This document shows, piece by piece, positions 1,602-59,280 of a DNA stretch of 64,000 nt. The DNA lies in contig JBDRIY010000019.1 in assembly GCA_043815445.1 (NCBI GenBank), positions 5,368 to 69,367 on the forward strand, read 5' to 3'. The notes beneath the pieces were generated by a model. That model did no database searches, was not told the origin of the DNA, and saw only the letters and a program-made list of their open reading frames with translations. The stretch's first letter is position 1; the number at the start of each line of letters is the position of its first letter. The DNA is from Candidatus Omnitrophota bacterium (GTDB lineage Bacteria; Omnitrophota; Gorgyraeia; Duberdicusellales; 4484-171). The translations under genes and the position numbers were made by a program.

Positions 1602-1640
1602 ATACTCGATACTTGATTTCCGATGCTTGATAGCTGATAT

Positions 1641-2483
1641 TTATTTTTGATAATTTTCCGCGGCTATTATTAAATTATAGTGAAGAAACATTGTAGTAAG
1701 TTTGCCCACGCCTCCGGGAACAGGGGTGATAAAAGAAGCTTTTTCTTTTGCTTTATCAAATTCTACGTCGCCGGTTATTACGCCCTGCTCTTCAACTATA
1801 CCCGCGTCAATTACCACTGCTCCTTGTTTAATCCATTCCCCTTTTATAAGGTTAGGCTTTCCTACTGCTGAAATTATAATATCGGCATTTTTTATGTATT
1901 CTTCCAGGTCACCAGCTTCATAAGTAGCGATATGAGTAATACTAACTGTAGCAAATTCATTTGCCAGCCATAAAGCTAAAGGTTTGCCTATAAGCGATGA
2001 AAAACCGACAACAACTGCTTTCTTAGCATAAGCTTTAACCCCGCAATAGCTAAATAACTTTATAATACTATTTACTGTAGGCGATATGTACATAGGCTCT
2101 CCTATTAAAAACTTTCCTAAGTTAACCGGATGCATCCCTTCAATGTCCTTATTCTCATCAAGCAAAGAAAATACCTCTACATCTTTCCACCCCGAAGGAA
2201 AAGGCTTATTGATAATGATGCCTGTTATACTTTCATCTCTATTTAACTTTACAATTTTTGATTTAAAATCTTCAAAAGAAATGCCTGAAAGCAGCTCAAC
2301 GGAAAGATATTTTATTCCCAACTTATCCGCAGTTTGTTTTTGCGAATTCTGGTAAGTTTGGGCTGAATAATCCTGCCCTATTATAACTGAAGCTAAACAT
2401 AATCCAGGCAAAACCCTAAGCCTTTCCTTAATTTCAGTTTCCAAACCGTTACATATTTCCTTTGAATCAAGTATTTCAGCCAT
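1641..2483 (-). CDS. folD: bifunctional methylenetetrahydrofolate dehydrogenase/methenyl-THF cyclohydrolase
   Basis: 280 aa with the FolD architecture; NAD(P)-binding segment VVVGFSSLIGKPLALWL and C-terminal GGVGKLTTMFL. Confidence 0.9.
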   Translation of the reverse strand: MAEILDSKEICNGLETEIKERLRVLPGLCLASVIIGQDYSAQTYQNSQKQTADKLGIKYLSVELLSGISFEDFKSKIVKLNRDESITGIIINKPFPSGWKDVEVFSLLDENKDIEGMHPVNLGKFLIGEPMYISPTVNSIIKLFSYCGVKAYAKKAVVVGFSSLIGKPLALWLANEFATVSITHIATYEAGDLEEYIKNADIIISAVGKPNLIKGEWIKQGAVVIDAGIVEEQGVITGDVEFDKAKEKASFITPVPGGVGKLTTMFLHYNLIIAAENYQK

Positions 2484-2492
2484 TTTTATATT

Positions 2493-3041
2493 TCATTCTT
2501 TCGTTTTCAATCTGTGTAATCTTTCCTTAATCTGCGTAATCAAAAGCCTATTGGCTTTTAGATTAGCTTCACAACCTTTAGCCGTGCTTTTTATAAAATC
2601 TAGCCCTATATTAAAATCGCTAATTATACTCTTTTTTATACTAGATTCTATCTCTTTGGCAAGAGAAAACACCTTTCGGCAGGCATCTTTAGTATTAAGA
2701 ATAATCTGGTTACTTTCTTTAACAAATCTTGCCCTTTTTTGGCCTTTTGTTAACATTACTTTTTCAAAAATATCACCATCTTTATCTATATAAGGATAAA
2801 TCTTCTTTTTTAAAGCTTCTAAATTAGTTAAGCTTTTTTTCAATTCTTTATTATTGGTTAATTGGCAGGTATCTTTAGATTTCAAACTTATAGAGTACTT
2901 AACTGCTTTCGCGACAAGGCCTACTCCCAGGCAAAAAACTAAACAAACCGCGCTCCCTCCACCCGGAGCCGGCTTTCTATCGCCTAAATCTTGCAAATAA
3001 CCTTTAAAATTATCTTTATAATGTTTCATAAGCAGCAACAC
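2493..3041 (-). CDS. cyclodeaminase/cyclohydrolase family protein (FtcD-like methenyl-THF cyclohydrolase)
   Basis: PAPGGGSAVCLVFCLGVGLVAKA motif typical of the formiminotransferase-cyclodeaminase C-domain family; lies next to folD as is common. Confidence 0.7.
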   Translation of the reverse strand: MLLLMKHYKDNFKGYLQDLGDRKPAPGGGSAVCLVFCLGVGLVAKAVKYSISLKSKDTCQLTNNKELKKSLTNLEALKKKIYPYIDKDGDIFEKVMLTKGQKRARFVKESNQIILNTKDACRKVFSLAKEIESSIKKSIISDFNIGLDFIKSTAKGCEANLKANRLLITQIKERLHRLKTKE

Positions 3042-3111
3042 ATTTTTATTTTTCCCTCTCTCTCCTTCCCATCCCTCTCCCTATCAAGCATCGAGTATCG
3101 AGTATCAAGCA

Positions 3112-3459
3112 TCATTCATCCATATTAAAAGCATCCTTAATAAGATTATAATACAAAATGTCCTTTTTTTGAATAATTTCTAAAACATCAAAACGAAAAA
3201 ACCCTTTAGGGTTCTTAGCACTGTAAAAAAGCGCGGTTTTTCTAATCTTATCTCTTTTCTTCTTATCCACAGCCTCTCGGGGAAGATACTCTGCCTTATA
3301 ATACCTCATTTTAACTTCCACAAAAGAAGTAAATTGTTTATCTCTGGCAATAATATCAATTTCCCCAAACCAACTGCGAAAATTCCTCTTTAAAATCTTG
3401 TAACCCTTTGACTTTAAAAACTTAACCGCCTCACCCTCATAAAACTTCCCTTTATTCAT
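3112..3459 (-). CDS. yraN: YraN-family (UPF0102) endonuclease-like protein
   Basis: 115 aa; GEAVKFLKSKGYKILKRNFRSWFGEIDIIARDKQFTSFVEVKMR matches the UPF0102 core; conserved position next to rnhB. Confidence 0.75.
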   Translation of the reverse strand: MNKGKFYEGEAVKFLKSKGYKILKRNFRSWFGEIDIIARDKQFTSFVEVKMRYYKAEYLPREAVDKKKRDKIRKTALFYSAKNPKGFFRFDVLEIIQKKDILYYNLIKDAFNMDE

Positions 3460-3492
3460 ACAATTCTATACTAACATCCGCGTCCATCCGCG

Positions 3493-4071
3493 TTAATATC
3501 CGCGTTTATCCGCGCCGCCGCAAGGCGAAAAACTTCGGCGGTGAAAAGGTGTCAGAGGCTGTTTTTTTATCAAAGAAAAGTGCTCAGGCGTAGGATAACC
3601 CTTATGCTGAGAAAAATTCCACTGGGGATATAGAAAATCAACCATATCCATAAGATAGTCTCTTGCTACCTTTGCCGCGATTGAGGCGCAGGATACTTCT
3701 TTAATCTTCGCGTCTGCTTTTTCTAAACAAGTATAGTTTAAATTTAAATCGGTACGGAAATGATTACCGTCAATAATAAAATTCGCTGTTTTCAAATGAG
3801 GGACTTTTTTAAGAAGTTTTTTTATCGCTCTGTTAAATGCTAAAAAAGTTGCCTCTAAGATATTAAGCTTGTCTATCTCCTCAGGCCCGGCTAAACCAAC
3901 AGCAAAATCAGCTTGAGCACTAATCCAAGAAAAAGCTTCTTGTCTTTGCCGGCTGGAAAGAACTTTAGAATCTTTAGGCGTCCAAGAGGGCTGTTTTTTA
4001 AGGTGTAAAGCGCAAGCCGTAACTACCCCAGCTAAAGGCCCTCTACCTGCTTCATCTACGCCGACTATCAT
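3493..4071 (-). CDS. rnhB: ribonuclease HII
   Basis: N-terminal MIVGVDEAGRGPLAGVV signature (the DEAGRG active-site motif). The last ~6 codons read into an atccgcgt repeat array, so the true stop may be slightly upstream of 3493. Confidence 0.9.
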   Translation of the reverse strand: MIVGVDEAGRGPLAGVVTACALHLKKQPSWTPKDSKVLSSRQRQEAFSWISAQADFAVGLAGPEEIDKLNILEATFLAFNRAIKKLLKKVPHLKTANFIIDGNHFRTDLNLNYTCLEKADAKIKEVSCASIAAKVARDYLMDMVDFLYPQWNFSQHKGYPTPEHFSLIKKQPLTPFHRRSFSPCGGADKRGY

Positions 4072-4165
4072 ATTAAAATAAACGAAGGATGAAGGACGAC
4101 TGCTTCGCTAGAACGAAGGACGATTCTTTTCGTCCCTCATCCTTCGTCCCTCGTGCTTCGTTAAC
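4072..4165. repeat. cgaagga/tccttcg heptamer-built palindrome (rplS-rnhB spacer)
   Basis: aacgaaggatgaaggacgactgcttcgctagaacgaaggacgattcttttcgtccctcatccttcgtccctcgtgcttcgtt. Confidence 0.7.
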
Positions 4166-4513: not shown

Positions 4514-4782
4514 CTTACACCTCCATTATATTTATATAGTATTGTCAAAAGTTTAATCACCAATTACTTTAATAACCAATAACCAAGATACAAACATCAA
4601 ACAATAACCAATGATCAAATTCAAATAACCAAACGGAAACGAAAAGAAGCCAAAAAAAAGAAAAGAACAGAGAAGAATTCGTTTGGTGATTGTATCTTGG
4701 TTATTGGAATTTGTTTGTATCTTGTATCTTGGTTATTGTATCTTTAACTGTATTTTGGTTATTTACTTCCTCCTCTCTCCAT
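4514..4782. repeat. ccaataa/ttggtta heptamer-built palindrome (family Y) between trmD and rplS
   Basis: Left arm accaattactttaataaccaataaccaagatacaaacatcaaacaataaccaatgatcaaattcaaataaccaaac faces right arm ggtgattgtatcttggttattggaatttgtttgtatcttgtatcttggttattgtatc. A related copy lies at 50721-50945. Confidence 0.75.
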
Positions 4783-5478: not shown

Positions 5479-5663
5479 ATCTTTAATAAAATTCGAAGTA
5501 CGAAATTCGAAATTCTAATGTTCAAATTTTCAAAACGGGAAATATTGTTTTGGTCATTTGAATTTTTGTCATTAGGATTTGCCCTTCGACTACGCTCAGG
5601 ATAGTGAACTTGTCGAACCATTTCGGATTTCGATATTCGGATTTCGGATTTTTTAATAGCAAT
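5479..5663. repeat. tcgaaat/atttcgg heptamer-built palindrome (family C), tgt-trmD spacer
   Basis: The terminal segment gtgaacttgtcgaaccatttcggatttcgatattcggatttcggat is the reverse complement of 9788-9836 (cgaatatcgaaatccgaaatggttcgacaagctcac). A third partial copy lies at 59047-59070. Confidence 0.75.
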
Positions 5664-7791: not shown

Positions 7792-7852
7792 TTTTTATAC
7801 AAATTTTTATTCGCGTTAATCCGCGTTTCTTCAAAATCAGCGTATATCCGCG

Positions 7853-8563: not shown

Positions 8564-8732
8564 AATTCTTTAAAAAATCTCAAATTCCAAGCATCAAATT
8601 ACAAATAAATCTCAAATCTCAAAATCCAAATTCCAATAGAAAGTTTCTTTATTTGGGATTTGAATATTGGAATTTATTTGTTATTTAGAATTTGTTATTT
8701 GGAATTTTATTTCTTATCTATAATAATATATC
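8564..8732. repeat. attccaa/ttggaat heptamer-built imperfect palindrome (family W, copy 1), in scpA leader
   Basis: Left arm (aaatctcaaattccaagcatcaaatt...ccaaattccaata) is the reverse complement of the right arm (tatttgggatttgaatattggaatttatttgttatttagaatttgttatttggaatt). It shares the core ttggaatttatttgt(t/g)atttggaatttgttatttggaatttcattt with 13494-13645, 18276-18470 and 58025-58304. Confidence 0.8.
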
Positions 8733-9779
8733 TCACAATCCCACTATCTCTTTAACTTCATCCAATGTTTGCGCGGCAGTTTCTTGGGCTTTTTTTCTGC
8801 CTTGTTCTAATATATCCTTTATATAATTCTTTTTGTTCAATATCTCTTGCTTTTTTGCCCTGCGAAGAACAATAAATTCTTCAAGAATTTTTACCAGCTC
8901 TTCTTTGCACTGGCGGCATCCTCTTTGAGCATTAATGCAATCTTTCTTAATTTGAGACAATTGGGGCTTTCCGTCAGAGGCGGATCCGTCTTCGGCGGAG
9001 AAAATAAAATAATAATCAAAAAGATTACAAACATCAGGATGCCCTGGGTCATTCCTTTTTTTTCTTGCCGGGTCGGTAAACATAGATAAAACTTTGCGGT
9101 TAAGTTCCTGACGGCTTTCATCAAGAGCAATATAATTTTGATAGCTTTTGCTCATTTTCCTTCCATCAAGGCCTAAAAAACGGGGAGTTGAAGCAAGGAT
9201 AGGTTTAGGCTCAACAAAAACTTTCTTTTTGTAAATAAAATGGAACTTGCGGACAATCTCCCGGCATAACTCTAAATGCGGAAGCTGGTCTTCACCTACC
9301 GGAACAGAATCAGCTTTATAGAGAAGGATATCCGAAGCTTGGAGAACGGGATAACCTAAGAAAGCGTAAGTATTTATCTCTTTATCTTTTAATTGAGCAA
9401 TCTGCTCTTTAAACGTTGGGCAGCGGTAAAGCCGGCTCAAAGGGACTAAAGCTGAAAGAATTGCCTCTAACTCTAAATGTTCAGGAACCTGAGACTGAAC
9501 AAAAATAACTGACTGATCAGGATCAATACCATAGCTTAACCAATCAGCCGCGTTATCGAAAATAGATTCTTTTATGATACCGGAATTTTTATATTCGCTC
9601 ATAAAAGCATGCCAGTCAGCAATCATAAAAAAGCATTTATACTCTTTTTGCAGCTTAGTCCAGTTCTCAAGCGCTCCCACCCAATGCCCTAGATGCAATT
9701 TACCTGTAGGCCGCATTCCGCTTAATATAATCTTCTTATCCATATTTTTCTTTAAAAATTCGAAATAATTTAAATTCAA
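8733..9779 (-). CDS. trpS: tryptophan--tRNA ligase
   Basis: Class I aaRS signatures: HIGH-like TGKLHLGHWVG and KMSKS; ~340 aa size typical of TrpS. Confidence 0.9.
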   Translation of the reverse strand: MNLNYFEFLKKNMDKKIILSGMRPTGKLHLGHWVGALENWTKLQKEYKCFFMIADWHAFMSEYKNSGIIKESIFDNAADWLSYGIDPDQSVIFVQSQVPEHLELEAILSALVPLSRLYRCPTFKEQIAQLKDKEINTYAFLGYPVLQASDILLYKADSVPVGEDQLPHLELCREIVRKFHFIYKKKVFVEPKPILASTPRFLGLDGRKMSKSYQNYIALDESRQELNRKVLSMFTDPARKKRNDPGHPDVCNLFDYYFIFSAEDGSASDGKPQLSQIKKDCINAQRGCRQCKEELVKILEEFIVLRRAKKQEILNKKNYIKDILEQGRKKAQETAAQTLDEVKEIVGL

Positions 9780-9896
9780 AACTCGAATATCGAAATCCGA
9801 AATGGTTCGACAAGCTCACCATTTCAAATTTCGGATTTCGTATTTCGAATTTTTATACATTTCGATATTCAGATTTCAGATTTATTATTAATATTT
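9780..9896. repeat. family C palindromic repeat (trpS leader)
   Basis: aaattcaaaactcgaatatcgaaatccgaaatggttcgacaagctcaccatttcaaatttcggatttcgtatttcgaattt; internally palindromic and matching 5600-5650 in inverse orientation. Confidence 0.75.
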
Positions 9897-11805
9897 TTAT
9901 TTCAATCTCCTTGCAATAATTTCTTCACTGTAAGCATCTATAAAATCTCCAGCCTGCATCTTATCGTAGCCTACACCTATTCCGCACTCAAAACCCTCAG
10001 CAACTTCTTTTACGTCGTCCTTAAACCTTTTTAAAGTTTTAATTTTTCCTTCAAAAATAATCTCATTAGCGCGCATAAGCTGTACGATTGAACCTCTGGT
10101 AATTTTTCCTTTTTCAACCATACATCCGGCTATTATACCGCTTTTAGAAAGTTTAAAAACCGCTTTAATCTTTGCTCGGCCGCAAAAGGTACGCTTAATC
10201 TGAGGAGTAAGCAAACCTTCTAAGGCTGCTTTAACATCATCAACAAGCTCATAAATTATCTGGTAAGACCTGGTTTCAATTCCTTTTTGCTTAGCCAAAT
10301 CTCTAACCTGAGCGCCTATATCAGCTTTAAACCCTACAATTATGGCATCAGTTACCTCAGCTAAAAGAATGTCTGAGGAATTGACAGCGCCCACACCCTT
10401 ATGAGTTATAACTAGATCAACTTCCTCAGAAGGAATCTTCCCCAAGGCGTCCTCTACCGCTTCCAGAGTTCCGCCTACATCCGCTTTTAGAATGATTTTT
10501 AGCTGCTTTGTGCTGCCTTCTTCTATTCTCTTATACAAATCTTCTAATTTAAAATGAGAAACCGGCACGAGTTTTTTTCTTTTATCGATTTCCCTTCTTT
10601 TTTCTACAATTTCTCTGGCGCTTTTTTCATTAGGAACTACTAATAACTGCTCTCCGGGATTAGGCACACCGTTTAAACCTAAAATCTCTACCGGAAAAGA
10701 GGGCCCAGCCAGCGGGCAATTATCGCCCCTATCATTATGCATTGCTTTTACCCTTCCCCAATAAAGGCCGCAAACGCACCAATCCCCTATTTTTATTACT
10801 CCTTCCTGAATTAGAGCAGCTATCAAAGGCCCTTTGCCTTTAGAAAGCCTTGCTTCAACAACAGCTCCCACAGCAGGCTTTTCATAATCAGCTTTAAGTT
10901 CCATTACATCGGCCTGGAGAACAATTAATTCTAAAAGCTCATCAATCTTTTCACCGGTTTTTGCTGAAACTCCTATAGTAATAGTTTTCCCTCCCCAGTC
11001 TTCAGGAACAAGCTCAGCCTTAGACAATTGCTGTTTAACCATATCTATATTAGCATTAGGCCGGTCAATTTTATTAATTGCCGCGATAATAGGAACTCCC
11101 GCGGCCCGGGCATGGTCAATTGCTTCTACTGTTTGAGGTTTAATTCCTTCATCAGCGGCAATCACTATAACAACAATGTCAGTAATATTAGCTCCTCTTG
11201 ACCGCATTGCTGTAAAAGTTTCATGGCCGGGAGTATCTAAAAAAGTAATTTTTCCCTTATCTAAAGTTACCTGATAAGCCCCCTATATGCTGAGTAATCC
11301 CTCCAGCTTCTTTGTCAACAATCTTGCTTTTCCTGATGCAGTCAAGGATACTCGTTTTCCCATGGTCAATATGGCCCATAAAAGTAACAATAGGAGCGCG
11401 TTCTTTCATATTTTTAGATTGGACTTTTAAAATTTCTTCTTCTTCGGTGAGTTTTTTCTTTAAATTAACCTTATAGCTATAGGCAATATCTGAAGCTATT
11501 TTTTCATTAAGGCTTTGATTTAAAGTAAAAAACTTACCTTGTTTTATCAGATCAGCTAAAAGTTCTGAAGATTTTTTATTTAATTTTACTGCCAGTTCTT
11601 TTACAGTTGTAGGGAAATCAATCTCTATAACGTTACTTTCAATTTCCTTTTTATCCAGTTCGCCAACCTCATGCTTGATAATCTCCGCGGTCTGGGCGTC
11701 TACACTGGACATATGATTTTTTACTGGAAATTTAAGGTTCTTAAGCTTTTTAATCAGCTCCTTACTATCTATCCCCAGCTCTTTAGCAAGTTCATGGATT
11801 CTCAT
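9897..11805 (-). CDS. infB: translation initiation factor IF-2, reading frame broken by a +1 frameshift at a C5 homopolymer (plus-strand 11279..11283)
   Basis: ORF 11257..11805 encodes the IF-2 N-domain and G1 motif [12 protein letters not shown], ending [18 protein letters not shown] 9897..11207 resumes at [30 protein letters not shown]. Deleting one G from the minus-strand GGGGG run restores the canonical connecting segment [24 protein letters not shown]. Confidence 0.85.
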
Positions 11806-13493: not shown

Positions 13494-13645
13494 ATCTATC
13501 CTTCTAAAATTCCAAATCCCAAGCACCAAATTCCAAATAAATCTCAAATCTCAAAATCCAAATTCCAATAAAGAATTTCTCCGTTTGGAATTTGTATATT
13601 GGAATTTATTTGTGATTTGGAATTTGTTATTTGGAATTTCATTTC
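13494..13645. repeat. family W palindromic repeat, copy 2 (rimP leader)
   Basis: aaattccaaatcccaagcaccaaattccaaataaatctcaaatctcaaaatccaaattccaata...attggaatttatttgtgatttggaatttgttatttggaatttcatttc; near-identical segments to copies 1, 3 and 4. Confidence 0.8.
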
Positions 13646-14797: not shown

Positions 14798-14819
14798 AAT
14801 TATATTATAAATAGATATC

Positions 14820-14942
14820 GTTATGCGTTGAAAGGTCGCGTAGCTGGAAACGGGCAACGTTAAACGTTGAACGTATTTTAGACGCAACCGATAGACGTAT
14901 GACGATTCGAGCTACGCAACCGAAAAACGGTTAACGCAACCC
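14820..14942. repeat. acgttga/gcaacg heptamer-built palindrome in proS leader
   Basis: gcgttgaaaggtcgcgtagctggaaacgggcaacgttaaacgttgaacgtattttagacgcaaccgatagacgtatgacgattcgagctacgcaaccgaaaaacggttaacgcaac. Confidence 0.7.
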
Positions 14943-18275: not shown

Positions 18276-18470
18276 AAATTAATAAGCTATTATTAAAATC
18301 CCAAATTTCAAGCACCAAATAACAAATAAGCTCCAAATTTCAAGCACCAAATTCCAAATAAATCTCAAATTTCAAATTCCAAAAATTCCCCATTGGAATT
18401 TGGATATTGAGTATTGGAATTTATTTGTTATTTGGAATTTGTTATTTGGAATTTCATTTTTATCTATGCC
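18276..18470. repeat. family W palindromic repeat, copy 3 (dxr leader)
   Basis: ccaaatttcaagcaccaaataacaaataagctccaaatttcaagcaccaaattccaaataaatctcaaatttcaaattccaaa...attggaatttatttgttatttggaatttgttatttggaatttcattt. Confidence 0.8.
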
Positions 18471-19959: not shown

Positions 19960-20050
19960 ATCTCCTCGCTTCGCTCGCATTGCAAAATGCAAAATTAGCA
20001 ATTAGCAATTAGCAATTAGCAATGTAAAATGTTTAATGTATTGCTTCAGC
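19960..20050. repeat. caattag heptamer tandem repeat (family Q), uppS leader
   Basis: tgcaaaatgcaaaattagcaattagcaattagcaattagcaatgtaaaatg (4 perfect units); a related array caattagcaattaacaattaacaattt lies at 54265-54300. Confidence 0.75.
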
Positions 20051-20127
20051 CGAAGGCTGATCCGCCTTTGGCGGAAATTTTAAAATGCTAAATTTGCATT
20101 GTTAATTTTTAAATTGTTGAATCTAAA

Positions 20128-40042: not shown

Positions 40043-40897
40043 TCAGGCGATTCTTTTCTTTTTCCCTTCAATCTGCTTAACTTTTTTATTTGATATCAAT
40101 AGCTTCATCTGCGTAATTGCTATTTGATTTAATTTCATTAATCTCTCAGCTTGAGATTTTCCTTCACTGATAAATAAAGCGTTCAGATTTTCCAGATTAG
40201 AAAGGCAAATAAGCTGTGCTATGTTGGCGTAATCACGAATATTTCCTTTATTATCTTTGTTTTTATCTCTCCACCGCTTAGCCGTCATCCCAAATAATGC
40301 CATATTTAACACATCCGCTTCACTGGCATACACACATTGCTGTTGTTTCTTTGTAACTTGCGCGGGAATTAAATGTTCTTTAATTGCGTCAGTATGTATC
40401 AGATAATTTATTTTTGTTAAATTCCTTTTAATATCCCAGCCGAGTTGCTTTTGCTCATACTCTTTTAGCCGCTGAAATTCCTTGATTAAATATAATTTAA
40501 ATTCTGAAGAAATCCATGACGCGAATTCAAAAGCAATATCCTTATGAGCATATGTTCCGCCGTATCGTCCTGACTTAGAAACAAGGCCTATAGCATTTGT
40601 GTTTTCTATCCACTTTTTAGGAGACAATACAAATGAATTTAAACCTGCCTCGTTTTTAAACCAGTCGAATTCGACCCCTTTAAAACTTCGATTGTTTAAC
40701 TTTTCCCACAAACCTAAAAACTCAATTGTATTTTTACTCCGCATCCAGTTTTTGACAACATCTTTAGGCTCCTCAGGATTTCTATATCGGGCAATGTCAG
40801 TAATACAAATATAATCACCCTTCTTTGTGCTATAAATATCTACTTTTCTTTGCAAAACATTAATAGTACCCATAGATTGGCTATCTCTCATAATCAT
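40043..40897 (-). CDS. KilA-N domain-containing protein
   Basis: N-terminal block ICITDIARYRNPEEPKDVVKNWMRSKNTIEFLGLWEKLNN...SKSGRYGGTYAHKDIAFEFASWIS is the typical KilA-N domain, frequently embedded in type I R-M loci. Confidence 0.8.
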   Translation of the reverse strand: MIMRDSQSMGTINVLQRKVDIYSTKKGDYICITDIARYRNPEEPKDVVKNWMRSKNTIEFLGLWEKLNNRSFKGVEFDWFKNEAGLNSFVLSPKKWIENTNAIGLVSKSGRYGGTYAHKDIAFEFASWISSEFKLYLIKEFQRLKEYEQKQLGWDIKRNLTKINYLIHTDAIKEHLIPAQVTKKQQQCVYASEADVLNMALFGMTAKRWRDKNKDNKGNIRDYANIAQLICLSNLENLNALFISEGKSQAERLMKLNQIAITQMKLLISNKKVKQIEGKKKRIA

Positions 40898-40904
40898 ATC
40901 TCCT

Positions 40905-42413
40905 TTACTTAATCCCTAATTCTTTCAAATAAGCCGCCATCTCTTTCTCAAGCTTCTCAAGTTTTGGCTCAAGCTCAGCCAACTCTTTAAGATTAGCTGA
41001 TATATCAATCTCAGTATCTTCCACAAAAGTATCAACATATCTTGTAATATTAAGGTTAAAGTCGTTTTCTTCAATTTCTTTAAAATTAACTTTACGAGAA
41101 AACTTATCAATATCTTTTCTCTTAATGTAAGTGTTATAAATCTTTTTAATATTATCGTCAGTTAAGGAATTTTGAGCTTTGCCCGGCTTAAACTCTTTAG
41201 ACGCTTCAATAAAAAGAATGCTCTTTTTTTTCTCATTAGCCCCGCCTGCCTCACGAGAACGATCTATAATAAGTATGGCAACCGGTATCCCTGTTGTCTG
41301 AAAAAGCCCCGCAGGTAAGCCAATGACAGCGTCAATAATGTTTTCTTCTAAAAGCTGTTGGCGAATTTTACCTTCAGCGCCGCCCCTAAACAATACCCCG
41401 TGCGGAACAATAACCGCGACACGGCCTGTTTTAGGTTTTGCTACTTCTATCATATGAGAGACAAATGCATAATCACCCTTATCTTTAGGCGGAACACCTC
41501 TAAAAAATCTATTATACCTATCATGCTCAGCACTTTCTGCTCCCCATTTTTTTAAACTAAAAGGAGGATTAGCAATAACCACATCAAATTTCATCAGCTT
41601 ATCATTCTCAACAAGCAAAGGATTGTTAAGCGTATCACCCCATTCAAGTCTCGCTGAATCTTTACCATGAAGAAACATATTCATGCGCGCAAGCTGATAG
41701 GTGCTTCCTGTTGACTCTTGGCCATATAAGGCATAATTTTTTGTATCCTGTTTCTCAACTTCTTTACCGGCTAATAAAAGAAGGCCGCCTGAGCCCATCG
41801 CCGGGTCACAAATACGATCGCCTTCTTTGGGTTGAGACAACATCGCAACCAGGGTTGCTACTGTTTTGGTAGTAAAAAATTCGCCCGCTTTCTTACCGGC
41901 ATCAGCACCAAACTTTTCAATCATATACATATAAGAGTTACCAATAATATCTTCATCGGTGTCACTTAAATCAATTTTATAAAAATCATTAATCAAATGG
42001 CGTAACATCTTATTCCGTTGTTCCTGTCTACCAAGAACAGCCTCTGAATTAAAATCAACACTAAAAACGCCTTCTAATTTACTCTTATTAATATCCTCAA
42101 TTTTATGCAGAACCTTATTTATTTCCTCACCGATATTGTCTTGTTCATGAATACTATAAATATAATCAAAAGATGTTTTAGCTGGTAAGTAGAAACGATC
42201 TGCTTTCATCTTCTCGGCAATACGCTTTTCGTCATCCCCAAAACGTTTTTTATACTTTTGGTGCTGTTTTTTTGATAAATCGCTAAGGTACTTAAAAAAC
42301 AACATTGATAAAGCATAATCCTTATAAACATCCGCATTAACCGCAGTGCGGGAAGAATCGGCCGCTTTCCATAAAACAACATTTAAATCTTCTTGCGTAT
42401 ATTTTTTTGTCAT
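40905..42413 (-). CDS. hsdM: type I restriction-modification N6-adenine DNA methyltransferase subunit
   Basis: HsdM N-terminal domain, AdoMet motif I DPAMGSGGLL and catalytic motif IV VIANPPFS. Confidence 0.95.
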   Translation of the reverse strand: MTKKYTQEDLNVVLWKAADSSRTAVNADVYKDYALSMLFFKYLSDLSKKQHQKYKKRFGDDEKRIAEKMKADRFYLPAKTSFDYIYSIHEQDNIGEEINKVLHKIEDINKSKLEGVFSVDFNSEAVLGRQEQRNKMLRHLINDFYKIDLSDTDEDIIGNSYMYMIEKFGADAGKKAGEFFTTKTVATLVAMLSQPKEGDRICDPAMGSGGLLLLAGKEVEKQDTKNYALYGQESTGSTYQLARMNMFLHGKDSARLEWGDTLNNPLLVENDKLMKFDVVIANPPFSLKKWGAESAEHDRYNRFFRGVPPKDKGDYAFVSHMIEVAKPKTGRVAVIVPHGVLFRGGAEGKIRQQLLEENIIDAVIGLPAGLFQTTGIPVAILIIDRSREAGGANEKKKSILFIEASKEFKPGKAQNSLTDDNIKKIYNTYIKRKDIDKFSRKVNFKEIEENDFNLNITRYVDTFVEDTEIDISANLKELAELEPKLEKLEKEMAAYLKELGIK

Positions 42414-42415
42414 AG

Positions 42416-43045
42416 TTATTCCCCCACTATTTTATTTAATAATCCATTAATAATATTTTTTTTAATGGCACACTTTTTTTCTAACAAAGTTATCTGCATC
42501 GAGATATTCAAGTAAAGATCCACAAGCTTGCGCTGATCTTCCACCGAGAGCAAGTTGATCTTGATATTTTCGATATCTTTACGCAATATATATTTGATAG
42601 CGGCTCCGGTCATAAGATGACTAAACTTCTGTTGGCCAATCGGAGAATTAAGATATAGCGCCAAATAATCAGGTAAAATTATGTTGTTGTCTTTAGCGCG
42701 CAATATATATACGGAAGAAGACGCTAATATTTTTTTATTTGACCTAACCACAGCAGAACGAAAAACACCTTTGTTTGAGATAACAACATCATTGGGCTCA
42801 ATAAAAGCCTTAGTGTGAGAAGTATCACAATTAGTAGCCACTAAACCAGATACATCAATAGATAAAGCATCTTTTTTAATATTTTTAGCTTGTAAGGCAA
42901 ATAAGGAGCTGCCAAAATGCTCTTCTATGGCACCACGAAAAGTGTACCCTGCGATAATGTCAACTATGTGCTTTAGCTTTATTTTATTTTTCATACGGGA
43001 AGTATACTGCAAAAAACAAAAGCTGTCAAGTATTTTTTTACGCAT
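42416..43045 (-). CDS. hsdS: half-size type I specificity subunit (single TRD)
   Basis: 209 aa with one TRD plus the conserved C-terminal coiled-coil repeat (LSVEDQRKLVDLYLNISMQITLLEKK); lies 2 bp upstream of hsdM. Confidence 0.75.
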   Translation of the reverse strand: MRKKILDSFCFLQYTSRMKNKIKLKHIVDIIAGYTFRGAIEEHFGSSLFALQAKNIKKDALSIDVSGLVATNCDTSHTKAFIEPNDVVISNKGVFRSAVVRSNKKILASSSVYILRAKDNNIILPDYLALYLNSPIGQQKFSHLMTGAAIKYILRKDIENIKINLLSVEDQRKLVDLYLNISMQITLLEKKCAIKKNIINGLLNKIVGE

Positions 43046-43526
43046 ACTGCAAGCATACTGTAAAATAGGCAGGATTTGTAGCGAATTTATTTGATTCTCA
43101 CAATCTGTAATTCAGTCCACACGTTACTTAATTAGGTATCATGTGTCCCCGGAATTTCCGGGCTTTACCCCCCCCATTAGATTTCGGTCTGTGAAGCTGA
43201 AATATTTGCTGTTTCCTAAAATACTTCCTTTTTTAAATCTCTCATTCTGATTAAAAATATATCAGCGGCGTCTTTTTTCAGCTCCGTCATCGTTCATCCC
43301 TCCTAAAAATAAAAAAACCTCCACGTTTTATTCGCGAAGGTTTTATCCGCCTGAGGCGGATAGTTCGGGATTTAGCCTTCTTAACTCGGGACTTTTGCCT
43401 AATTGTAATTATGCTTTATCTCGAAAAACAAAGTTGTCAATGGTTTCTTATAAAACCTTACTCTTCTACGCCTTCGCTTTGCTCTTGGCTTCGAAGCAGC
43501 ACCAAATCTTTGCTTCAGCAAAAATT

Positions 43527-43600
43527 TGGTGGAGCCGACGGGAATCGAACCCGTGATACCACAATGCCATTGTGGTGTGATCCCGCTTCACCACGGCCCC
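43527..43600 (-). tRNA. tRNA-Ala (anticodon GGC)
   Basis: Reverse complement folds as GGGGCCG-TG-GTGA-AGCGGGA-TCAC-A-CCACA-ATGGCAT-TGTGG-TATC-ACGGG-TTCGATT-CCCGT-CGGCTCC-A-CCA. It has the G3:U70 Ala identity pair, anticodon GGC and an encoded CCA. Confidence 0.85.
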
Positions 43601-43812
43601 GCAGAAACAAGAAGATTCTTCGCTCTGCTCAGGATTAATTCAACTAAGGGCTTTTGTGCGCAGAGTTTATCCTGAGTATTTCGAAGGGCTTCAAAAGCCT
43701 AAGTTTCATTGAATATTACCATTCATAAAGGAAATTGTCAATTGACAAAGAAAATTAGTAATGTTATGATTGAAGAAATCGTATCAATATTACTTTAATA
43801 TTATTACATTTT

Positions 43813-43895
43813 GCCGGAGTGGCGGAATGGCAGACGCGCTGGATTCAAAATCCAGTCTCCGCAAGGAGGTGAGGGTTCAAGTCCCTCCTCCGGCA
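43813..43895 (+). tRNA. tRNA-Leu (anticodon CAA)
   Basis: GCCGGAG acceptor, anticodon stem CTGGA/TCCAG with loop TTCAAAA, long variable arm and T-loop GTTCAAGTC; no CCA encoded. Confidence 0.85.
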
Positions 43896-43904
43896 TTAAA
43901 TTAA

Positions 43905-45842
43905 ATGGCACACTTCCAACTAGATAGATTTCAAGAAGAGGCGATTGAATATTCCCGCAAAGAGCATTCAGTCATTGTTAGCGCGCCTACTGGAGCGGGA
44001 AAAACTCTTATTGCTGAACATATAATTCAAGATTGTATAGACAATAATAAAGGTGTTATCTACACCGCTCCTATAAAAGCTCTTAGTAATCAAAAATTCC
44101 GTGACTTCTGCAAAAAATACCCTCAGAAAACCGGAATCCTTACCGGCGACGTAAACATAAATCGAGACGCGCCTATTTTAATTATGACTACGGAAATATT
44201 CCGTAATGCCATCATGGTTGATCCTCAAAGCTTTGAGCACCGGGAATGGGTTATCTTCGACGAAATTCATTATCTTGACGATATTGAACGGGGCACAGTT
44301 TGGGAAGAAGCAATTATTCTTTTACCTCCTAAAATGAAAATGCTGGCTTTAAGCGCTACTATTCCTAATCTTAAAGAACTGGTTTGCTGGCTTGAACAAA
44401 TCCACAACTTTCCCATAAAAACAATAATAGAAAAGGACCGCCCTGTTCCCCTTCACTTTTTGTTTCACTGCAATAATGAAATATTTTATAACTTTGAGGA
44501 ATTAAACAAATCTGACCAGTTGCGAAAAAGCCTTAAAAATCCTTCTTATCAAGAAAGTTATTTTTTTTCCAAACCTAACCAGATAAAAACTCTCTTAGAG
44601 AATATTAATGAGAATAAGGCTTCTCCTTGCGTTTATTTTTCTTTTTCGCGAAAAAGGTGTGAAATTCTAGCTCAGGAAGCCGGATATTTTAACTTCCTTT
44701 CTCCCAATGAAAAAAAGAAAATAACTGAAACTTTTGATCAACTTTTAGACAAATTTGATATCTCCGGTTCTCCTCACATAAGCTTTCTGGCATCCTTAAT
44801 TAATAAAGGTATTGCTTACCACCACGCCGGGCTTCTGCCCTCTTTAAAAGAAATAATTGAAAGACTGTTTACAACCGGCTTAATAAAACTAATTTTTACC
44901 ACTGAAACCTTTGCCTTAGGGATAAATATGCCGGCAAGAACAGTTGTCTTTGATACTATGAGCAAATTTTACGGAAGCTATCACGGTTATCTTAAAACCC
45001 GCGACTTTTACCAGATGGCCGGCAGAGCCGGAAGACGGGGTATTGATAAAGAAGGGTTTGTATTTTCTCGAATAAACCCTTCTCATATAGACATTAAATC
45101 TTTAGAAAAAATAATCTACGGAGACTACGAACCAATCAAAAGCCAGCTTAATTCCTGTTACGCGACTATCTTAAACCTTTACAGAATAATGGGAGATAAA
45201 ATTTACGATATTTATCCTAAATCATTTCACTTTTATCAAAGCAAAGCCTGGGAAAAAAAACAAGTTTTAGGGCTGCTTAAAAGAAAAATCGCTCTGCTGG
45301 AAGAGCTGGGCTACATTTCCGGTTTAAATATAACTCCTAAAGCTGAGCTTGCCGCTAAAGTTTATAGTTTTGAGTTGGCTATTGGAGAATTATTTAATCA
45401 AGGTTTCTTAGACAACCTCGATGAAGAAATCTTATTTATATTCATAATTGCTCTAGTATATGAACCGAGAAAAGGAGAAAAAAGGCCGAAATTAAATAAA
45501 AGGATAAGAGCCTTAAAAAGAGACTTGGATCGGTTTGTCCGAATTATACATGATACAGAAAAAAAATTTCATATTCTTCCCTTAAGCAAAAAGTTTTTCT
45601 TTTATCTTGCTGATGCTTCCAAAATGTGGTTTGAGGGGGCTGAGTTTTCCAGCTTAAAAAAATTCTCCAGCGTTGATGAAGGCGAGATAGTCCGTTACTT
45701 TAGAATGGGAATACAAGTGCTAAGAGAAATGTCTTCCTCCCCGATAATAAACCCTTATTTAAGAAAGAAAATTCTAAACTGCTTGAGAAAAGTAAACCGC
45801 GGCGTAGTAGACGCCCGTCAACAGTTAACCCAGGAAATCTAA
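43905..45842 (+). CDS. Ski2-like DEAD/DEAH-box (SF2) helicase
   Basis: Q-motif-like FQLDRFQEEAI, Walker A APTGAGKT, DEIH box (VIFDEIHYL), SAT motif LSATIPN and helicase C HHAGL...QMAGRAGRRG. Confidence 0.8.
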   Translation: MAHFQLDRFQEEAIEYSRKEHSVIVSAPTGAGKTLIAEHIIQDCIDNNKGVIYTAPIKALSNQKFRDFCKKYPQKTGILTGDVNINRDAPILIMTTEIFRNAIMVDPQSFEHREWVIFDEIHYLDDIERGTVWEEAIILLPPKMKMLALSATIPNLKELVCWLEQIHNFPIKTIIEKDRPVPLHFLFHCNNEIFYNFEELNKSDQLRKSLKNPSYQESYFFSKPNQIKTLLENINENKASPCVYFSFSRKRCEILAQEAGYFNFLSPNEKKKITETFDQLLDKFDISGSPHISFLASLINKGIAYHHAGLLPSLKEIIERLFTTGLIKLIFTTETFALGINMPARTVVFDTMSKFYGSYHGYLKTRDFYQMAGRAGRRGIDKEGFVFSRINPSHIDIKSLEKIIYGDYEPIKSQLNSCYATILNLYRIMGDKIYDIYPKSFHFYQSKAWEKKQVLGLLKRKIALLEELGYISGLNITPKAELAAKVYSFELAIGELFNQGFLDNLDEEILFIFIIALVYEPRKGEKRPKLNKRIRALKRDLDRFVRIIHDTEKKFHILPLSKKFFFYLADASKMWFEGAEFSSLKKFSSVDEGEIVRYFRMGIQVLREMSSSPIINPYLRKKILNCLRKVNRGVVDARQQLTQEI

Positions 45843-45960
45843 CAGGCTTCAAGCTGCAAGCTACAGGCTGCATACTTCAGACTTCAGCTTCAAGTTTAAA
45901 ATGCACACTTGAAGCTTGCAGCCTGCGGCCTGAATTCGGCCTAAACAAAAAATTTCTTGA
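45843..45960. repeat. cttcaag/gctgcaa palindrome between helicase and rpmB
   Basis: ggcttcaagctgcaagctacaggctgcatacttcagacttcagcttcaagtttaaaatgcacacttgaagcttgcagcctgcggcc. Confidence 0.7.
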
Positions 45961-50720: not shown

Positions 50721-50945
50721 CTTTGCACCTTCTCGTATAATATATTTAAATAACCAATAAAAATGAATAACCAAGAAACAAGATACAAGATACAAACAAA
50801 TTCCAATCACCAATAATCAATCACCAAACAATTTAATTTGTTGTATTCTTTGGTTATTGGAATTTGATTTCATTGGTTATTGTTTGGTTATTGTATCTTG
50901 GTGTTTGGTTATTTTTCATTTTACTCCATTACTTTAATCCGCGTC
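50721..50945. repeat. family Y palindromic repeat, second copy (thrC leader)
   Basis: aataaccaataaaaatgaataaccaagaaacaagatacaagatacaaacaaattccaatcaccaataatcaatcaccaaac...ttggttattggaatttgatttcattggttattgtttggttattgtatcttggtg. Confidence 0.75.
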
Positions 50946-54239: not shown

Positions 54240-54329
54240 CCCCTATTTTTTTTAAAAATCACTTAACAATTTTCAATTAGCAATTAACAATTAACAATTT
54301 AAAATGTTAATTGATAATTGCTAAATTAT
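54240..54329. repeat. family Q caattag/caattaa repeat with inverted partner (gpsA leader)
   Basis: cacttaacaattttcaattagcaattaacaattaacaatttaaaatgttaattgataattgctaaatt. Confidence 0.7.
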
Positions 54330-55337: not shown

Positions 55338-55409
55338 ATTATACTGAGTATTTCTTCTCTATCCTCCTAAAACAAACTGCGAACTACAAACAACAAACTA
55401 CAATTTAAA

Positions 55410-57717: not shown

Positions 57718-58024
57718 TATGAGTTATAGAAAGAAAAATGTCTATATTTATATTTTTTTTGAACTTACAATAAGGCGCGCCATTGGCTTTATTAAGTATT
57801 AAGATATCAGTTAAGGCGAGAGGCTGTTCTTTAGAGATAGCTTTTATTACCGCTTCTTTAGCGGCAAAGCGGGCCGCGATACGCTGATAATACATCTTAG
57901 CCTGAGGAATATTCTTAAGTTCTTCATGATTAAACACACGCTCAAGAAACCTCTCCCCCAATTTCTCTATAGAACTTTTAATCTTTTCTATTTTTATTAT
58001 ATCTATTCCTACACCAATAATCAT
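57671..58024 (-). CDS. acpS: holo-[acyl-carrier-protein] synthase
   Basis: 117 aa; MIIGVGIDIIKIEKI N-terminus and 4'-phosphopantetheinyl transferase fold. Confidence 0.85.
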   Translation of the reverse strand: MIIGVGIDIIKIEKIKSSIEKLGERFLERVFNHEELKNIPQAKMYYQRIAARFAAKEAVIKAISKEQPLALTDILILNKANGAPYCKFKKNINIDIFLSITHIEDYAVACAVAQKKI

Positions 58025-58304
58025 AATTAATTATTTCTAAAATTCCTAATCGGCCTAATTACTCTAATTTCTAACCGTCAGGCCTACTTGGTCAAATTCC
58101 AAAATATAATATATTAAAAATTAAAATTCCAAGCTCCAAGCACCAAATCCCAAATAAATTCCAATAATCAAATTCCAAACAAAGAATTCTTTGTTTCGAT
58201 CATTGGAGCTTTGGTAATTGGAATTTATTTGTCCTTTGGAATTTGTTATTTGGAATTTCATTTCTTTAGGTTAATTAGAGCAATTAGAAGTTATTAATTG
58301 AACC
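58025..58304. repeat. family W palindromic repeat, copy 4 (pdxJ leader)
   Basis: attccaagctccaagcaccaaatcccaaataaattccaataatcaaattccaaac...ggtaattggaatttatttgtcctttggaatttgttatttggaatttcatttc. Confidence 0.8.
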
Positions 58305-59018
58305 TTATCTTTTAATTAAAGTAATCATTTCTTCCACCGCCGATACTACCCCTATATAGATAGCATGGCAAATTATAGAATGGCCTATATTAAGCTCTTC
58401 TATTCCTTTTATCCGGGCTATTTTTCGCGTGTTATCATAATCAAGCCCATGCCCGGCAGCAGTAAGAAAACCTATTTTTTGAGCAAACCTTACCGCCTCT
58501 TTTATCTTTATAATTTCCTTTTCTTCTGATGCCGGCGTTTTTGCTTCTGAAAACTGCCCGGTATTAATTTCAACAAAATCCGCTCCTATATCTTTAGCCG
58601 CCTTAATTTTTACTTTTATAGGATCAATGAACAAACTTACTTTTATTCCCGCTTTTTTTAATCTTTTTACCGCTTGTTCAACTTTTCTGTAATTTTTCAC
58701 AAGATTAAGCCCGCCTTCAGTAGTAAGCTCCTGTCTTTTTTCAGGAACTAAAGTTGCTTGATAAGGCTTTAATTCCTGAGCAAAAGCGACAATATTCTTA
58801 TTAACAGACATCTCTAAATTTAAAGGAATCTTTATTGCCTTTTTAATAAGAATAACGTCATGCTCTTTTATATGCCTCCTGTCTTCCCTTAAATGAACAA
58901 CTATTGAATCACAGCCCGCGTATTCAGCAAGTAGAGCCCCCATTACCGGCTCGGGATACTTCGTGCCCCGAGCCTCCCGTAAAGTCGCTACATGATCGAC
59001 ATTAACTCCTAATTTCAT
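58305..59018 (-). CDS. pdxJ: pyridoxine 5'-phosphate synthase
   Basis: MKLGVNVDHVATLREARGTKYPEP N-terminus is diagnostic for PdxJ. Confidence 0.9.
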   Translation of the reverse strand: MKLGVNVDHVATLREARGTKYPEPVMGALLAEYAGCDSIVVHLREDRRHIKEHDVILIKKAIKIPLNLEMSVNKNIVAFAQELKPYQATLVPEKRQELTTEGGLNLVKNYRKVEQAVKRLKKAGIKVSLFIDPIKVKIKAAKDIGADFVEINTGQFSEAKTPASEEKEIIKIKEAVRFAQKIGFLTAAGHGLDYDNTRKIARIKGIEELNIGHSIICHAIYIGVVSAVEEMITLIKR

Positions 59019-59084
59019 CTAAATAAATCTCCATCTAAAAAATCTAAAATTCGAATATCGAAATCCGAAACAAACTCCATAATT

Positions 59085-59280
59085 TAAATCAAAGATTAAA
59101 ATGTAAAATGCAAAATGACAAATTAAAATTCAAAAAGAAATTCAAGGCGTTTAAGGAGAAAAATATTTTTACATTTTTATTTGTCATTTTGATATTTAAT
59201 TTTTAATTTTATAATATAGATTTCAATATTCTGATTTATTTATATTCCTATTCCCTTAGTAATTTCTCCGCTAACATAAA
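59085..59280. repeat. family AT palindromic repeat, second copy (cdaA/pdxJ spacer)
   Basis: aaatcaaagattaaaatgtaaaatgcaaaatgacaaattaaaattcaaaaag...catttttatttgtcattttgatatttaatttttaatttt. Confidence 0.65.

Follow-up and report, generated by a model that had tools for sequence, protein, structure and literature searches.

The intergenic spacers of a 64,000-nucleotide (nt) stretch of a Candidatus Omnitrophota genome (assembly GCA_043815445.1, contig JBDRIY010000019.1, positions 5,368 to 69,367; here called the window) carry imperfect palindromes whose arms are built of tandem 7-nt units. These heptamer arrays are real, were gained in this lineage, and form dispersed repeat families. One of them, called ttggaat after its unit, is common to several phyla, and small genes of the protein family PF05635 are embedded in such arrays. 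We consider it probable, at about 60%, that the window palindromes are copies, lacking an open reading frame (ORF), of widespread selfish elements that resemble the intervening sequences (IVSs) of rRNA genes.

Heptamer palindromes in the operon spacers of the window

The original prediction held that most operon leaders and spacers of the window contain heptamer-built imperfect palindromes, with a different unit at each locus. Same-base autocorrelation over the 7,088 nt of noncoding window DNA bears out the periodicity, with values of 0.36 at lag 7, 0.34 at lag 14, and 0.32 at lag 21 against a baseline of about 0.28. The coding DNA of the window shows period 3 alone, with no peaks at 7, 14, or 21 nt. 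Eighteen of 38 window spacers have a lag-7 z above 3 relative to shuffled sequences, 7 being the best lag in 16 of those 18, and the majority of the 18 also fold far better than shuffles, mostly as one long hairpin each (z for the minimum free energy [MFE], -3.6 to -8). Tandem Repeats Finder (TRF) places period-7 arrays at nearly all of the predicted loci, and a repeat search identifies inverted arms of 30 to 73 nt that are 70 to 93% complementary and enclose loops of 5 to 65 nt. Six elements folded individually form one long hairpin each, with MFE z scores of -3.6 to -7.1. By all of these measures, the predicted palindromes are present. "Most spacers" holds for spacers of at least about 90 nt outside 26.4 to 45.8 kb, most of which carry arrays, and does not hold elsewhere; TRF detects zero heptamer tracts between 26.4 and 45.8 kb.

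The window has about 36% GC, nearly all of its genes lie on the minus strand, and the arrays are certainly situated within transcribed operon spacers. They may act as leader-RNA structures, another option of the original prediction, but folding shows no strand bias (19 of 39 elements), the two strands being equally stable. An Rfam 15 scan of the window brings only six tRNAs to the gathering threshold and no rRNA, and at a permissive threshold the element region gives generic hairpin matches only, far below threshold. Promoter-like and terminator-like sites are not enriched at arrays in the window, and we therefore rejected the idea of a portable promoter or terminator. The sole predicted terminator inside any array is a short stem within an acgttga array (14855-14869, plus strand). 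Intrinsic terminators (a short GC-rich stem with a U-run after it) were likewise rejected as the identity of the arrays; the canonical terminator at 20131-20152 adjoins a caattag element and does not lie within it.

The palindromes are lineage-specific, dispersed repeat families

The TrpS protein of the window is 100% identical to a protein from a metagenome-assembled genome at NCBI and 78% and about 70% identical to those of the next relatives, which places the window in Candidatus Omnitrophota. For comparison we used four related contigs (L001, L002, L004, and L121; 70 to 78% TrpS identity), which keep the gene order uppS-cdsA-dxr-rseP-ispG-proS-rimP-nusA-infB-trpS-scpA-ruvB-tgt-trmD-rplS-rnhB-...-folD. 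In all four, the genes at infB|trpS, trpS|scpA, tgt|trmD, and proS|rimP overlap or abut and the spacers hold no heptamer tracts, whereas the equivalent junctions of the window contain 98 to 185 nt of array. Overall, the window has 24 tracts (921 bp) per 64 kb, compared with 0 or 1 per roughly 20 kb of orthologous DNA in each of three relatives. The arrays are therefore lineage-specific gains and not conserved leaders. The original prediction had itself named absence from the same leaders of relatives as a refuting outcome, and absence is what we observe; its option of operon-specific binding arrays in conserved leaders fails by that standard. In L004 (9852-10000 and 10982-11191), and likewise in L005, unrelated, nonheptamer repeated insertions occupy infB|trpS and trpS|scpA, so these junctions seem merely insertion tolerant.

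Units do differ among loci, but the claim of one unit per locus was overstated: families recur at unrelated loci, and the window arrays are dispersed repeats. The ttggaat family has four copies (starting at 8574, 13507, 18285, and 58116) that align end to end. The two full copies of the tcgagta family (23720-23823 and 26262-26386) are 84% identical over about 110 nt in the same orientation (nhmmer E value, 1.5e-11), and those of the ggttatt family (4555-4775 and 50745-50935), which face opposite ways, share 81% identity over about 200 nt (E value, 3e-16). Three tcgaaat copies (5479-5663, 9765-9810, and 59040-59075) have a common core of about 45 nt and occur in both orientations. Family members also vary in copy number: one of the tcgagta copies has (ATTCTCG)5, and a 32-nt block is duplicated at 18296. 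These differences are superimposed on common sequence and therefore reflect secondary growth of the arrays. A higher-order period of 32 to 33 nt, approximately four heptamers plus 4 nt, is seen in the arms at 4571-4738, 8575-8724, 13513-13572, and 18296-18375, so the arms themselves are tandem duplications of a composite block.

The ttggaat element is found in about ten phyla

An exact 20-mer from the ttggaat right arm, GAATTTGTTATTTGGAATTT, can be found in over 115 stretches of DNA from species-representative genomes. A family hidden Markov model (HMM) built from the four window copies was searched against the fetched loci with nhmmer. Full-length matches, with E values of 1e-25 to 1e-15, were obtained in Patescibacteria, Acidobacteriota/Aminicenantes, Desulfobacterota, Gammaproteobacteria, Planctomycetota, Stahlbacteria, Bacteroidota, and Omnitrophota, among others, and shorter forms in Nitrospirota and Elusimicrobiota, a spread of about ten phyla over which the asymmetry of the arms is unchanged. 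The forward strand scores about twice as high as the reverse in every case, indicating a conserved polarity: a left arm containing ..CCAAGCACCAAAT.. stands opposite a right arm containing ..ATTTGTTATTTGG.., and the noncomplementary left-arm signature CAAGCACCAAAT lies no more than 300 nt upstream of 38 of 111 right-arm sites, compared with 1 downstream.

The element is AT-rich throughout even though its host loci range from 32 to 65% GC, which argues against convergent drift. Conservation is concentrated in the outer 18 to 25 nt of each arm and the interior is variable; in the alignment used to test covariation across phyla, the invariant outer stem is all that could be aligned. Elements of this family are found nested in larger palindromes of other heptamers, and their own loops carry other hairpins.

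Origin in place, by mutation alone, would require neither mobility nor common ancestry: slippage would raise microsatellites in any spacer, and quasi-palindrome template switching would copy the inverted arm. Heptamers are in excess in many bacteria, with slippage put forward as the reason (Mrazek 2007, as cited in PMC4692102 and PMC4679880), and the copy-number differences described above, like those between Coxiella strains one heptamer apart, are of the kind that slippage produces. Independent slippage cannot, however, yield 81 to 86% identity over 110 to 200 nt between unrelated spacers, nor a 130-nt AT-rich element with identical nonperiodic details in about ten phyla of 32 to 65% GC, and it leaves the tight association with one protein family (see below) unexplained. 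We regard this origin as improbable; slippage probably modifies the elements secondarily.

An artifact of assembling a short-read metagenome bin appears highly improbable. Palindromic low-complexity DNA is hard to assemble, and a frameshift in infB shows that the contig is not error free, but the arrays lie within a long contig between intact conserved genes. Moreover, homologous elements occur in isolate genomes (Salinimicrobium and Chitinophaga), in complete plasmids, and in contigs of 0.3 to 1 Mb.

Other searches returned little. A blastn search of plasmids with the element gave no match, possibly through the low-complexity filter. Among viral contigs there were five matches, with the full element in only two of identical sequence, and hence no strong phage link. 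A metagenome scan with one composite pattern for the tcgagta family gave two identical chance matches in coding DNA.

The original prediction had also offered a mobile family resembling miniature inverted-repeat transposable elements (MITEs) that diversifies by turnover of its units. This comes nearest of its three options, as the families are dispersed and one occurs in about ten phyla, although no transposase or target-site duplication was found. Classical MITEs are deletion derivatives of insertion sequences, which a DDE or Y1 transposase mobilizes in trans by recognizing their terminal inverted repeats. Such an origin would fit the conserved, imperfect ends of about 18 bp (AAATTCCAAGCACCAAAT ... 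ATTTGTTATTTGGAATTT) and the variable interior, as well as the small, noncoding, multicopy, intergenic, and sometimes nested nature of the elements. Against it, no target-site duplication is seen, no transposase lies between paired arms in about 0.8 Mb of loci, and none is evident in the window, where ORF translations were read by eye and not profile scanned. ORFs between neighboring elements are ordinary genes save one type, a PF05635 gene, which is the only gene found between such arms. We therefore think a classical MITE origin quite doubtful.

The PF05635 genes examined lie between inverted heptamer arrays

In a Patescibacteria locus, a ttggaat left arm runs directly into the start codon of a 120-codon ORF that matches PF05635 (23S_rRNA_IVP; E value, 1.7e-15) and TIGR02436 ("four helix bundle protein"). 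Five PF05635 genes are present in four loci fetched by DNA pattern, and each is enclosed by a heptamer palindrome. Among these is a truncated remnant of 26 codons (Nealsonbacteria, L022), flanked by ttggaat arms, that looks like an intermediate toward an ORF-less element. Desulfobacterales, Scalindua, and Brocadiaceae have four-helix-bundle proteins that are 70 to 78% identical to the one from the Patescibacteria locus. When homologues were picked by protein similarity alone (70 to 75% identity; Scalindua, Brocadiaceae, Desulfobacterales, and Doudnabacteria), ttggaat-family arms abut their start and stop codons. Further, arm HMMs from ORF-less copies, including the window copies, match beside PF05635 ORFs in L130, L131/L133, and L134, with E values of 5e-10 to 6e-8. 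Judged by these sequence matches, the window ttggaat copies and the ORF-flanking arms from other phyla are homologous.

The association extends to distant members of the family. Among 72,556 plasmids searched with tblastn, only 28 records contain the family; nearly all of these are from Cyanobacteria, and some are from Bacteroidota, Treponema, and Chlorohelix; the taxa with plasmid PF05635 genes are the taxa with reported heptamer repeats. We inspected 14 plasmid genes, namely, 13 fetched distant homologues and the second gene of a Nostoc punctiforme plasmid, and all 14 are bracketed by inverted tandem heptamers with a gene-specific unit. Examples are (AATTCGT)4|ORF|(TTACGAA)4 in Nostoc flagelliforme, GTCGGAG/CTCCGAC in N. 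punctiforme, (ACTGGTC)13 in Euhalothece, (TTAGTGA)15 in Bernardetia, CCGCTCT in Treponema, and (TTGGAAT)6 in Dolichospermum. A TAACTGA-like unit flanks the Chondrinema gene, and the weakest heptamer signal among the plasmid genes is that of Anabaena cylindrica.

In total, 24 of 24 PF05635 genes examined lie between inverted heptamer arrays, and 19 of these were selected without regard to DNA repeats. As background controls, six of the eight heptamer tracts in 50 kb of a Nostoc punctiforme plasmid lie within 160 nt of its two PF05635 genes, and all three tracts in 50 kb of a Treponema plasmid lie beside its single PF05635 gene. These 24 cases and two controls are the basis for linking heptamer arrays to four-helix-bundle genes in general, and the link needs a census before it can be called established. 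The family comprises at least 8,000 clusters, many members of which are found on contigs of 0.5 to 2 kb, as expected if the elements break short-read assemblies.

Two further arrangements were observed around these genes. The Brocadiaceae locus (L130, 2001-3961) contains two full genes in tandem (2001-2369 and 2515-2880), both flanked by heptamer arms of their own. Farther along, past two small unrelated genes, lies a PF05635 fragment of 52 codons (3803-3961), an arrangement that suggests local duplication or repeated insertion. Four-helix-bundle genes with heptamer arms are also present in defense loci of Anabaena cylindrica (plasmid pANACY.01; L138), Pseudanabaena (L148), Chlorohelix (L143), and Gloeocapsa (L151). 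One of these genes separates cas2 from cas1, and another adjoins cas1; in two loci from different phyla, the gene has a DUF1156 gene on one side and a Swt1-family HEPN gene on the other, and the units of both are alike, of the TTTTAGA type.

Array boundaries and gene starts

Ortholog alignment places the true starts of rimP at 13493, proS at 14797, uppS at 19959, cdsA at 19262, and trpS at 9743. The longest ORFs of rimP, proS, and uppS extend artefactually into the arrays, in agreement with the original prediction for these three genes. Many arrays reach a start codon, and several of the downstream genes lack a Shine-Dalgarno sequence. In particular, members of the tcgagta family abut the ATG alike at 1601, 23719, and 26268.

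This placement would be expected if the heptamers were DNA or mRNA-leader sites for a repeat-reading protein that tunes transcription or translation downstream. In one variant of this explanation, four-helix-bundle proteins could be the readers, each for its own unit, as the copy-specific units around PF05635 genes would allow. In Nostoc, reporter data show that heptamer repeats affect recF/recO expression (bioRxiv 10.1101/2022.06.06.494920), and a translational role has been proposed for TAACTGA repeats (PMC4679880). We nevertheless consider host cis regulation unlikely for the window arrays. Relatives are array free at the equivalent junctions, one family stands ahead of genes with no functional connection, ggttatt and tcgaaat elements are found both with and against the direction of transcription, and the strands fold equally well. 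In addition, the window has no PF05635 gene, and promoter- and terminator-like sites are not enriched at the arrays.

Individual elements of the window

The four ttggaat copies are all on the plus strand or, in the case of copy 4, within a plus-strand nested element. Copy 1 (8574-8708; arms 8574-8631 and 8651-8708) lies in the trpS-scpA spacer and scores 113 bits against the family HMM. Copy 2 (13507-13642; arms 13507-13562 and 13584-13639; 126 bits) lies in the proS-rimP spacer and folds into one hairpin with an MFE of -46 kcal/mol (z, -6.5). At both of these junctions the genes overlap in relatives. Copy 3 (18285-18465; arms 18285-18357 and 18393-18465; 122 bits) lies in the cdsA-dxr spacer, and a 32-nt block is tandemly duplicated in its left arm (TRF period 32, 2.5 copies). 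Copy 4 (58116-58266; arms 58116-58172 and 58210-58266; 118 bits) is enclosed by outer ctaatta/taattag arms (approximately 58025-58080 and 58265-58304), together forming the nested element at 58025-58304.

Three of the predicted sites, at 1602-1640, 3081-3111, and 59040-59075, are single arms rather than local palindromes. The first, of the ATACTCG/ATACTTG type of the tcgagta family (lag-7 z, 4.4), occupies the entire spacer between folD and the next gene, a junction of 7 nt in relatives, and adjoins the ATG at 1601. The second, 1.4 kb away, is its reverse complement, of the ATCGAGT/ATCAAGC type (TRF period 7 at 3083-3114; spacer lag-7 z, 4.0). Together, the two arms enclose two host genes, FTCD_C-like and folD, which occupy the position that the four-helix-bundle ORF has in full elements. 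The two tcgagta palindromes are on the plus strand: copy 1 (23720-23823) abuts a probable ATG at 23719, and copy 2 (26269-26383) fills the leuS-comEA-like spacer, where (ATTCTCG)n abuts the ATG at 26268 (TRF period 7, 8.3 copies, 92%; lag-7 z, 11.2; hairpin z, -4.6).

The tcgaaat family is represented by a composite element at 5479-5663 in the tgt-trmD spacer (TRF period 7 at 5489-5515 and 5620-5651) and by a palindrome at 9772-9890 in the infB-trpS spacer (arms 9772-9806 and 9818-9852; TRF period 7 at 9821-9852 and 9859-9883), again at junctions where the genes overlap in relatives. A 16-nt core, GGTTCGACAAG(C/T)TCAC, is common to the loops of these two (5560-5620 and 9800-9825), where its orientations are opposite. 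The third single arm (59040-59075) also belongs here and is followed by an AT-rich (aaaatg) palindrome (59079-59243), the whole spanning 59040-59243 upstream of pdxJ; the arms of the palindrome lie at 59079-59138 and 59184-59243 and at 59092-59136 and 59166-59210. A second AT-rich (aaaatg/cattttt) heptamer palindrome at 23910-24096 has arms (23910-23967 and 24033-24090) that are 76% complementary, with TRF periods of 13 to 14. For ggttatt/aataacc, copy 1 (4555-4775; arms 4568-4635 and 4680-4747) is in the trmD-rplS spacer, and copy 2 (50760-50935; arms 50766-50807 and 50872-50913), in the opposite orientation, is in the hom-thrC spacer.

The remaining elements have units of their own. A cgaagga/tccttcg palindrome (4072-4165) fills the rplS-rnhB spacer and folds into one hairpin (TRF period 7/14 at 4129-4161; MFE, -41.2 kcal/mol; z, -7.1), and an acgttga/tcaacgt palindromic array (14800-14942) fills the ispG-proS spacer (lag-7 z, 4.1; MFE, -46.7 kcal/mol; z, -5.1). 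Between the minus-strand intrinsic terminator at 20131-20152 and the uppS start at 19959 lies a caattag/ctaattg palindrome (19975-20135) containing (AATTAGC)4.4 with a 100% match by TRF (spacer MFE z, -7.3). Its loop (20040-20080) holds two small GC hairpins, cagccgaaggctg and tccgcctttggcgga, and the loop region has weak nhmmer matches in three Patescibacteria loci (L046, L066, and L097). A cttcaag/cttgaag palindrome (45843-45945) downstream of the sole large plus-strand gene has TRF period 7 and forms one hairpin (MFE, -43.9 kcal/mol; z, -3.6), and a short ttaacaa/caattag palindrome lies at 54255-54329 (TRF period 7, 5.3 copies; MFE, -20.7 kcal/mol; z, -4.9). A weak single array of ACAAACT beside a tRNA gene (55372-55403; TRF period 7, 4.6 copies, 76%; spacer lag-7 z, only 2.2) is a doubtful member of the class.

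Other features of the window were noted alongside the arrays. Two sites at 3460 and 7800, predicted as heptamer arrays of an atccgcgt unit, are not 7-periodic (z, -0.2 and -1.7) and instead consist of direct repeats at a spacing of 10 to 12 nt. ATCCGCG occurs 14 times in the window against 3.45 expected, with 13 of the 14 on the plus strand; four copies (3476-3514; 10- to 12-nt spacing) lie directly upstream of yraN and overlap the end of rnhB, and two (7819-7852) lie upstream of ruvB. With a spacing of about one helical turn rather than 7 nt, this may be a regulator binding array. The yraN-like gene (3112-3459), between rnhB and the FTCD_C-like gene, is not at that position in L001, L002, or L004. 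A long nonheptamer palindrome at 25654-25867, with 40-nt arms that are 85% complementary and 134 nt apart and GC-rich hairpins inside, lies in the spacer with the strongest folding z of the window (-11). Part of the array-free interval of about 19 kb (26400-45800) is a type I restriction-modification or defense-like island, judged by eye from translations, with hsdR-like (33066-36269) and hsdM-like (40905-42413) genes; the island may be a recent arrival. Finally, infB is split into two ORFs (9897-11805, with a gap at 11208-11256) that correspond to IF2 residues 1 to 176 and 200 to 635 of relatives, the result either of a frameshift in this essential gene or of faulty assembly.

Discussion

The window elements are best filed as a variant of three known groups, IVS elements, heptameric repeats, and MITE-like palindromes, while being full members of none: they lack an ORF, lie outside rRNA, and have no transposase. 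The closest parallel to our preferred reading is the IVS of 23S rRNA genes with an S23p ORF, known from Coxiella burnetii and, as cited in PMC4990558, from Leptospira, Brucella, and Xanthomonas. PF05635 is functionally uncharacterized by its description, is found in 23S rRNA insertions and in candidate phyla radiation bacteria also in 16S, and is homologous to Avd, a protein of diversity-generating retroelements. In the Coxiella IVS, the S23p ORF sits in the loop of a 28-bp terminal stem, and two or three tandem GACAGAT heptamers stand just before the ORF, their number depending on the strain so that strains differ by one heptamer. RNase III cuts this IVS out in vitro, with mapped ends, and its ORF is decaying; the element is regarded as selfish (PMC4990558). 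The window elements share the terminal inverted-repeat stem and the tandem heptamers, which in Coxiella lie at the start of an ORF of the same family, PF05635, that is found between heptamer arms in 24 of 24 cases; homology of the arms themselves extends to ttggaat only. Unlike IVSs, the window copies have no PF05635 ORF in the loop and lie between protein-coding or tRNA genes rather than in an rRNA gene, at helix 25 or 45 of 23S rRNA. Their arrays are also much longer (30 to 73 nt), belong to several families, and occupy about twenty sites in 64 kb.

Simple heptameric repeats are overrepresented between the genes of bacteria; they are patchily distributed, no function is generally accepted for them, and their horizontal transfer has been suspected "but no mechanism is evident" (PMC4692102, PMC4679880). 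Those described include the short tandemly repeated repetitive (STRR) sequences of Calothrix and Nostoc, GGGAATC of Xanthomonas, and TAACTGA of Beggiatoaceae, Cyanobacteria, and Bacteroidetes. Like the window arrays, they are tandem 7-nt intergenic units, often located by start codons, and they are missing in close relatives, patchy across phyla, and in some cases arranged as inverted pairs (PMC4692102, PMC4679880). The window shows the excess of tandem intergenic heptamers that marks this class of simple sequence repeats, but its units differ from the published TAACTGA (PMC4679880) and GGGAATC (PMC4692102). The published repeats have been treated as direct arrays of one unit, with no origin given, whereas the window arrays are palindromes in dispersed families with a protein-coding partner. 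Their units presumably also differ from the STRR consensus units. In a full-text literature search, with most subscription journals outside its reach, we did not find a general association of heptamers with PF05635, or a link of STRR to that family, stated.

Like MITEs, ERIC (enterobacterial repetitive intergenic consensus) sequences, and REPINs (paired repetitive extragenic palindromic [REP] sequences), the window elements are small, noncoding, multicopy imperfect palindromes in transcribed spacers, dispersed, with conserved ends and a variable interior, and sometimes nested. They differ in having 7-periodic arms, with no target-site duplication, autonomous transposase-encoding partner, or RAYT (REP-associated tyrosine transposase) partner seen; the sole coding partner found for the arms encodes PF05635, not a known recombinase. 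We rejected REP/REPIN-RAYT systems because the arms are AT-rich, 30 to 73 nt long, and 7-periodic and lack the GC-rich REP core, a palindrome of 20 to 40 nt headed by GTAG/CGTC; no Y1-transposase-like ORF is evident among the window ORFs, as judged by eye from translations only. Integron attC sites were rejected, as there is no GTTRRRY core and the elements lie inside housekeeping operons, and the Bacteroidetes -33/-7 promoter because there is no match. Rho rut sites and CsrA GGA arrays were dropped as not general across units.

If the window palindromes are ORF-less copies of IVS-like selfish elements, the full element would consist of a small four-helix-bundle protein gene bracketed by two inverted heptamer arrays that pair into a long stem. 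Copies would land in transcribed spacers, their arms would gain and lose 7-nt units by slippage and diverge, giving each copy or family its own unit, and the ORF would decay, leaving palindromes of 75 to 280 bp such as those in the window. By analogy with 23S rRNA IVSs, the transcript stem (30 to 70 bp) would be expected to be an RNase III substrate, which would probably explain how insertions are tolerated between the genes of essential operons. Cutting would make an insertion harmless and might uncouple the neighboring cistrons. RNase III processing hairpins also lie between cistrons in the early region of phage T7, for which PMC4990558 cites Dunn and Studier 1973. These, too, are long imperfect stems between the genes of one transcript, and cutting of this type would part the cistrons, the upstream piece keeping a 3' hairpin; the likeness is one of analogy only, with no sequence relationship.

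Several observations weigh against this account. The flanks of 30 full-length copies show no consistent target-site duplication; an empty site at nucleotide-level identity, empty/filled site pairs, and a recombinase were not found, so mobility is deduced from distribution alone. A six-frame scan of the 64-kb window with a profile of 14 family members, and tblastn, detected no PF05635 gene or remnant, so the window copies can only be ORF-less derivatives. The arms are linked by sequence to ORF-bearing elements for ttggaat only, and the other window families by architecture alone. The window ttggaat copies are 74% identical to one another, compared with 67% between the window and other phyla, which is not what a simple recent burst would give. 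ORF-less ttggaat copies are mainly antisense to their neighbors (20:5), whereas ORF-bearing copies are mainly co-oriented. Lastly, causality may run in reverse, with PF05635 genes inserting into the loops of preexisting palindromes. Taken together, the evidence lends partial support to the original interpretation, which did not foresee the link to PF05635.

It is possible, though somewhat short of probable, that inverted heptamer arrays and the PF05635/TIGR02436 (Avd-like) gene together constitute one previously unrecognized, pan-bacterial class of selfish "intervening" elements. In that case, ORF-less relics would explain much of the intergenic heptamer excess (STRR, TAACTGA, and others), and the protein may recognize its own arms and maintain or move the element.

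These findings have a practical consequence for annotation, as the arrays shift ORF starts upstream (rimP, proS, and uppS) and break metagenome assemblies. They also join two puzzles. Heptameric repeats have been reported for decades (STRR in cyanobacteria, a general excess in 2007, TAACTGA, and GGGAATC) with no accepted origin or function given, and the four-helix-bundle or 23S rRNA IVS protein family is very large and uncharacterized. If a census confirms the association, it would provide an origin for many intergenic heptamer repeats, extend the IVS concept from rRNA to operon spacers, and offer a concrete protein-nucleic acid pair to test.

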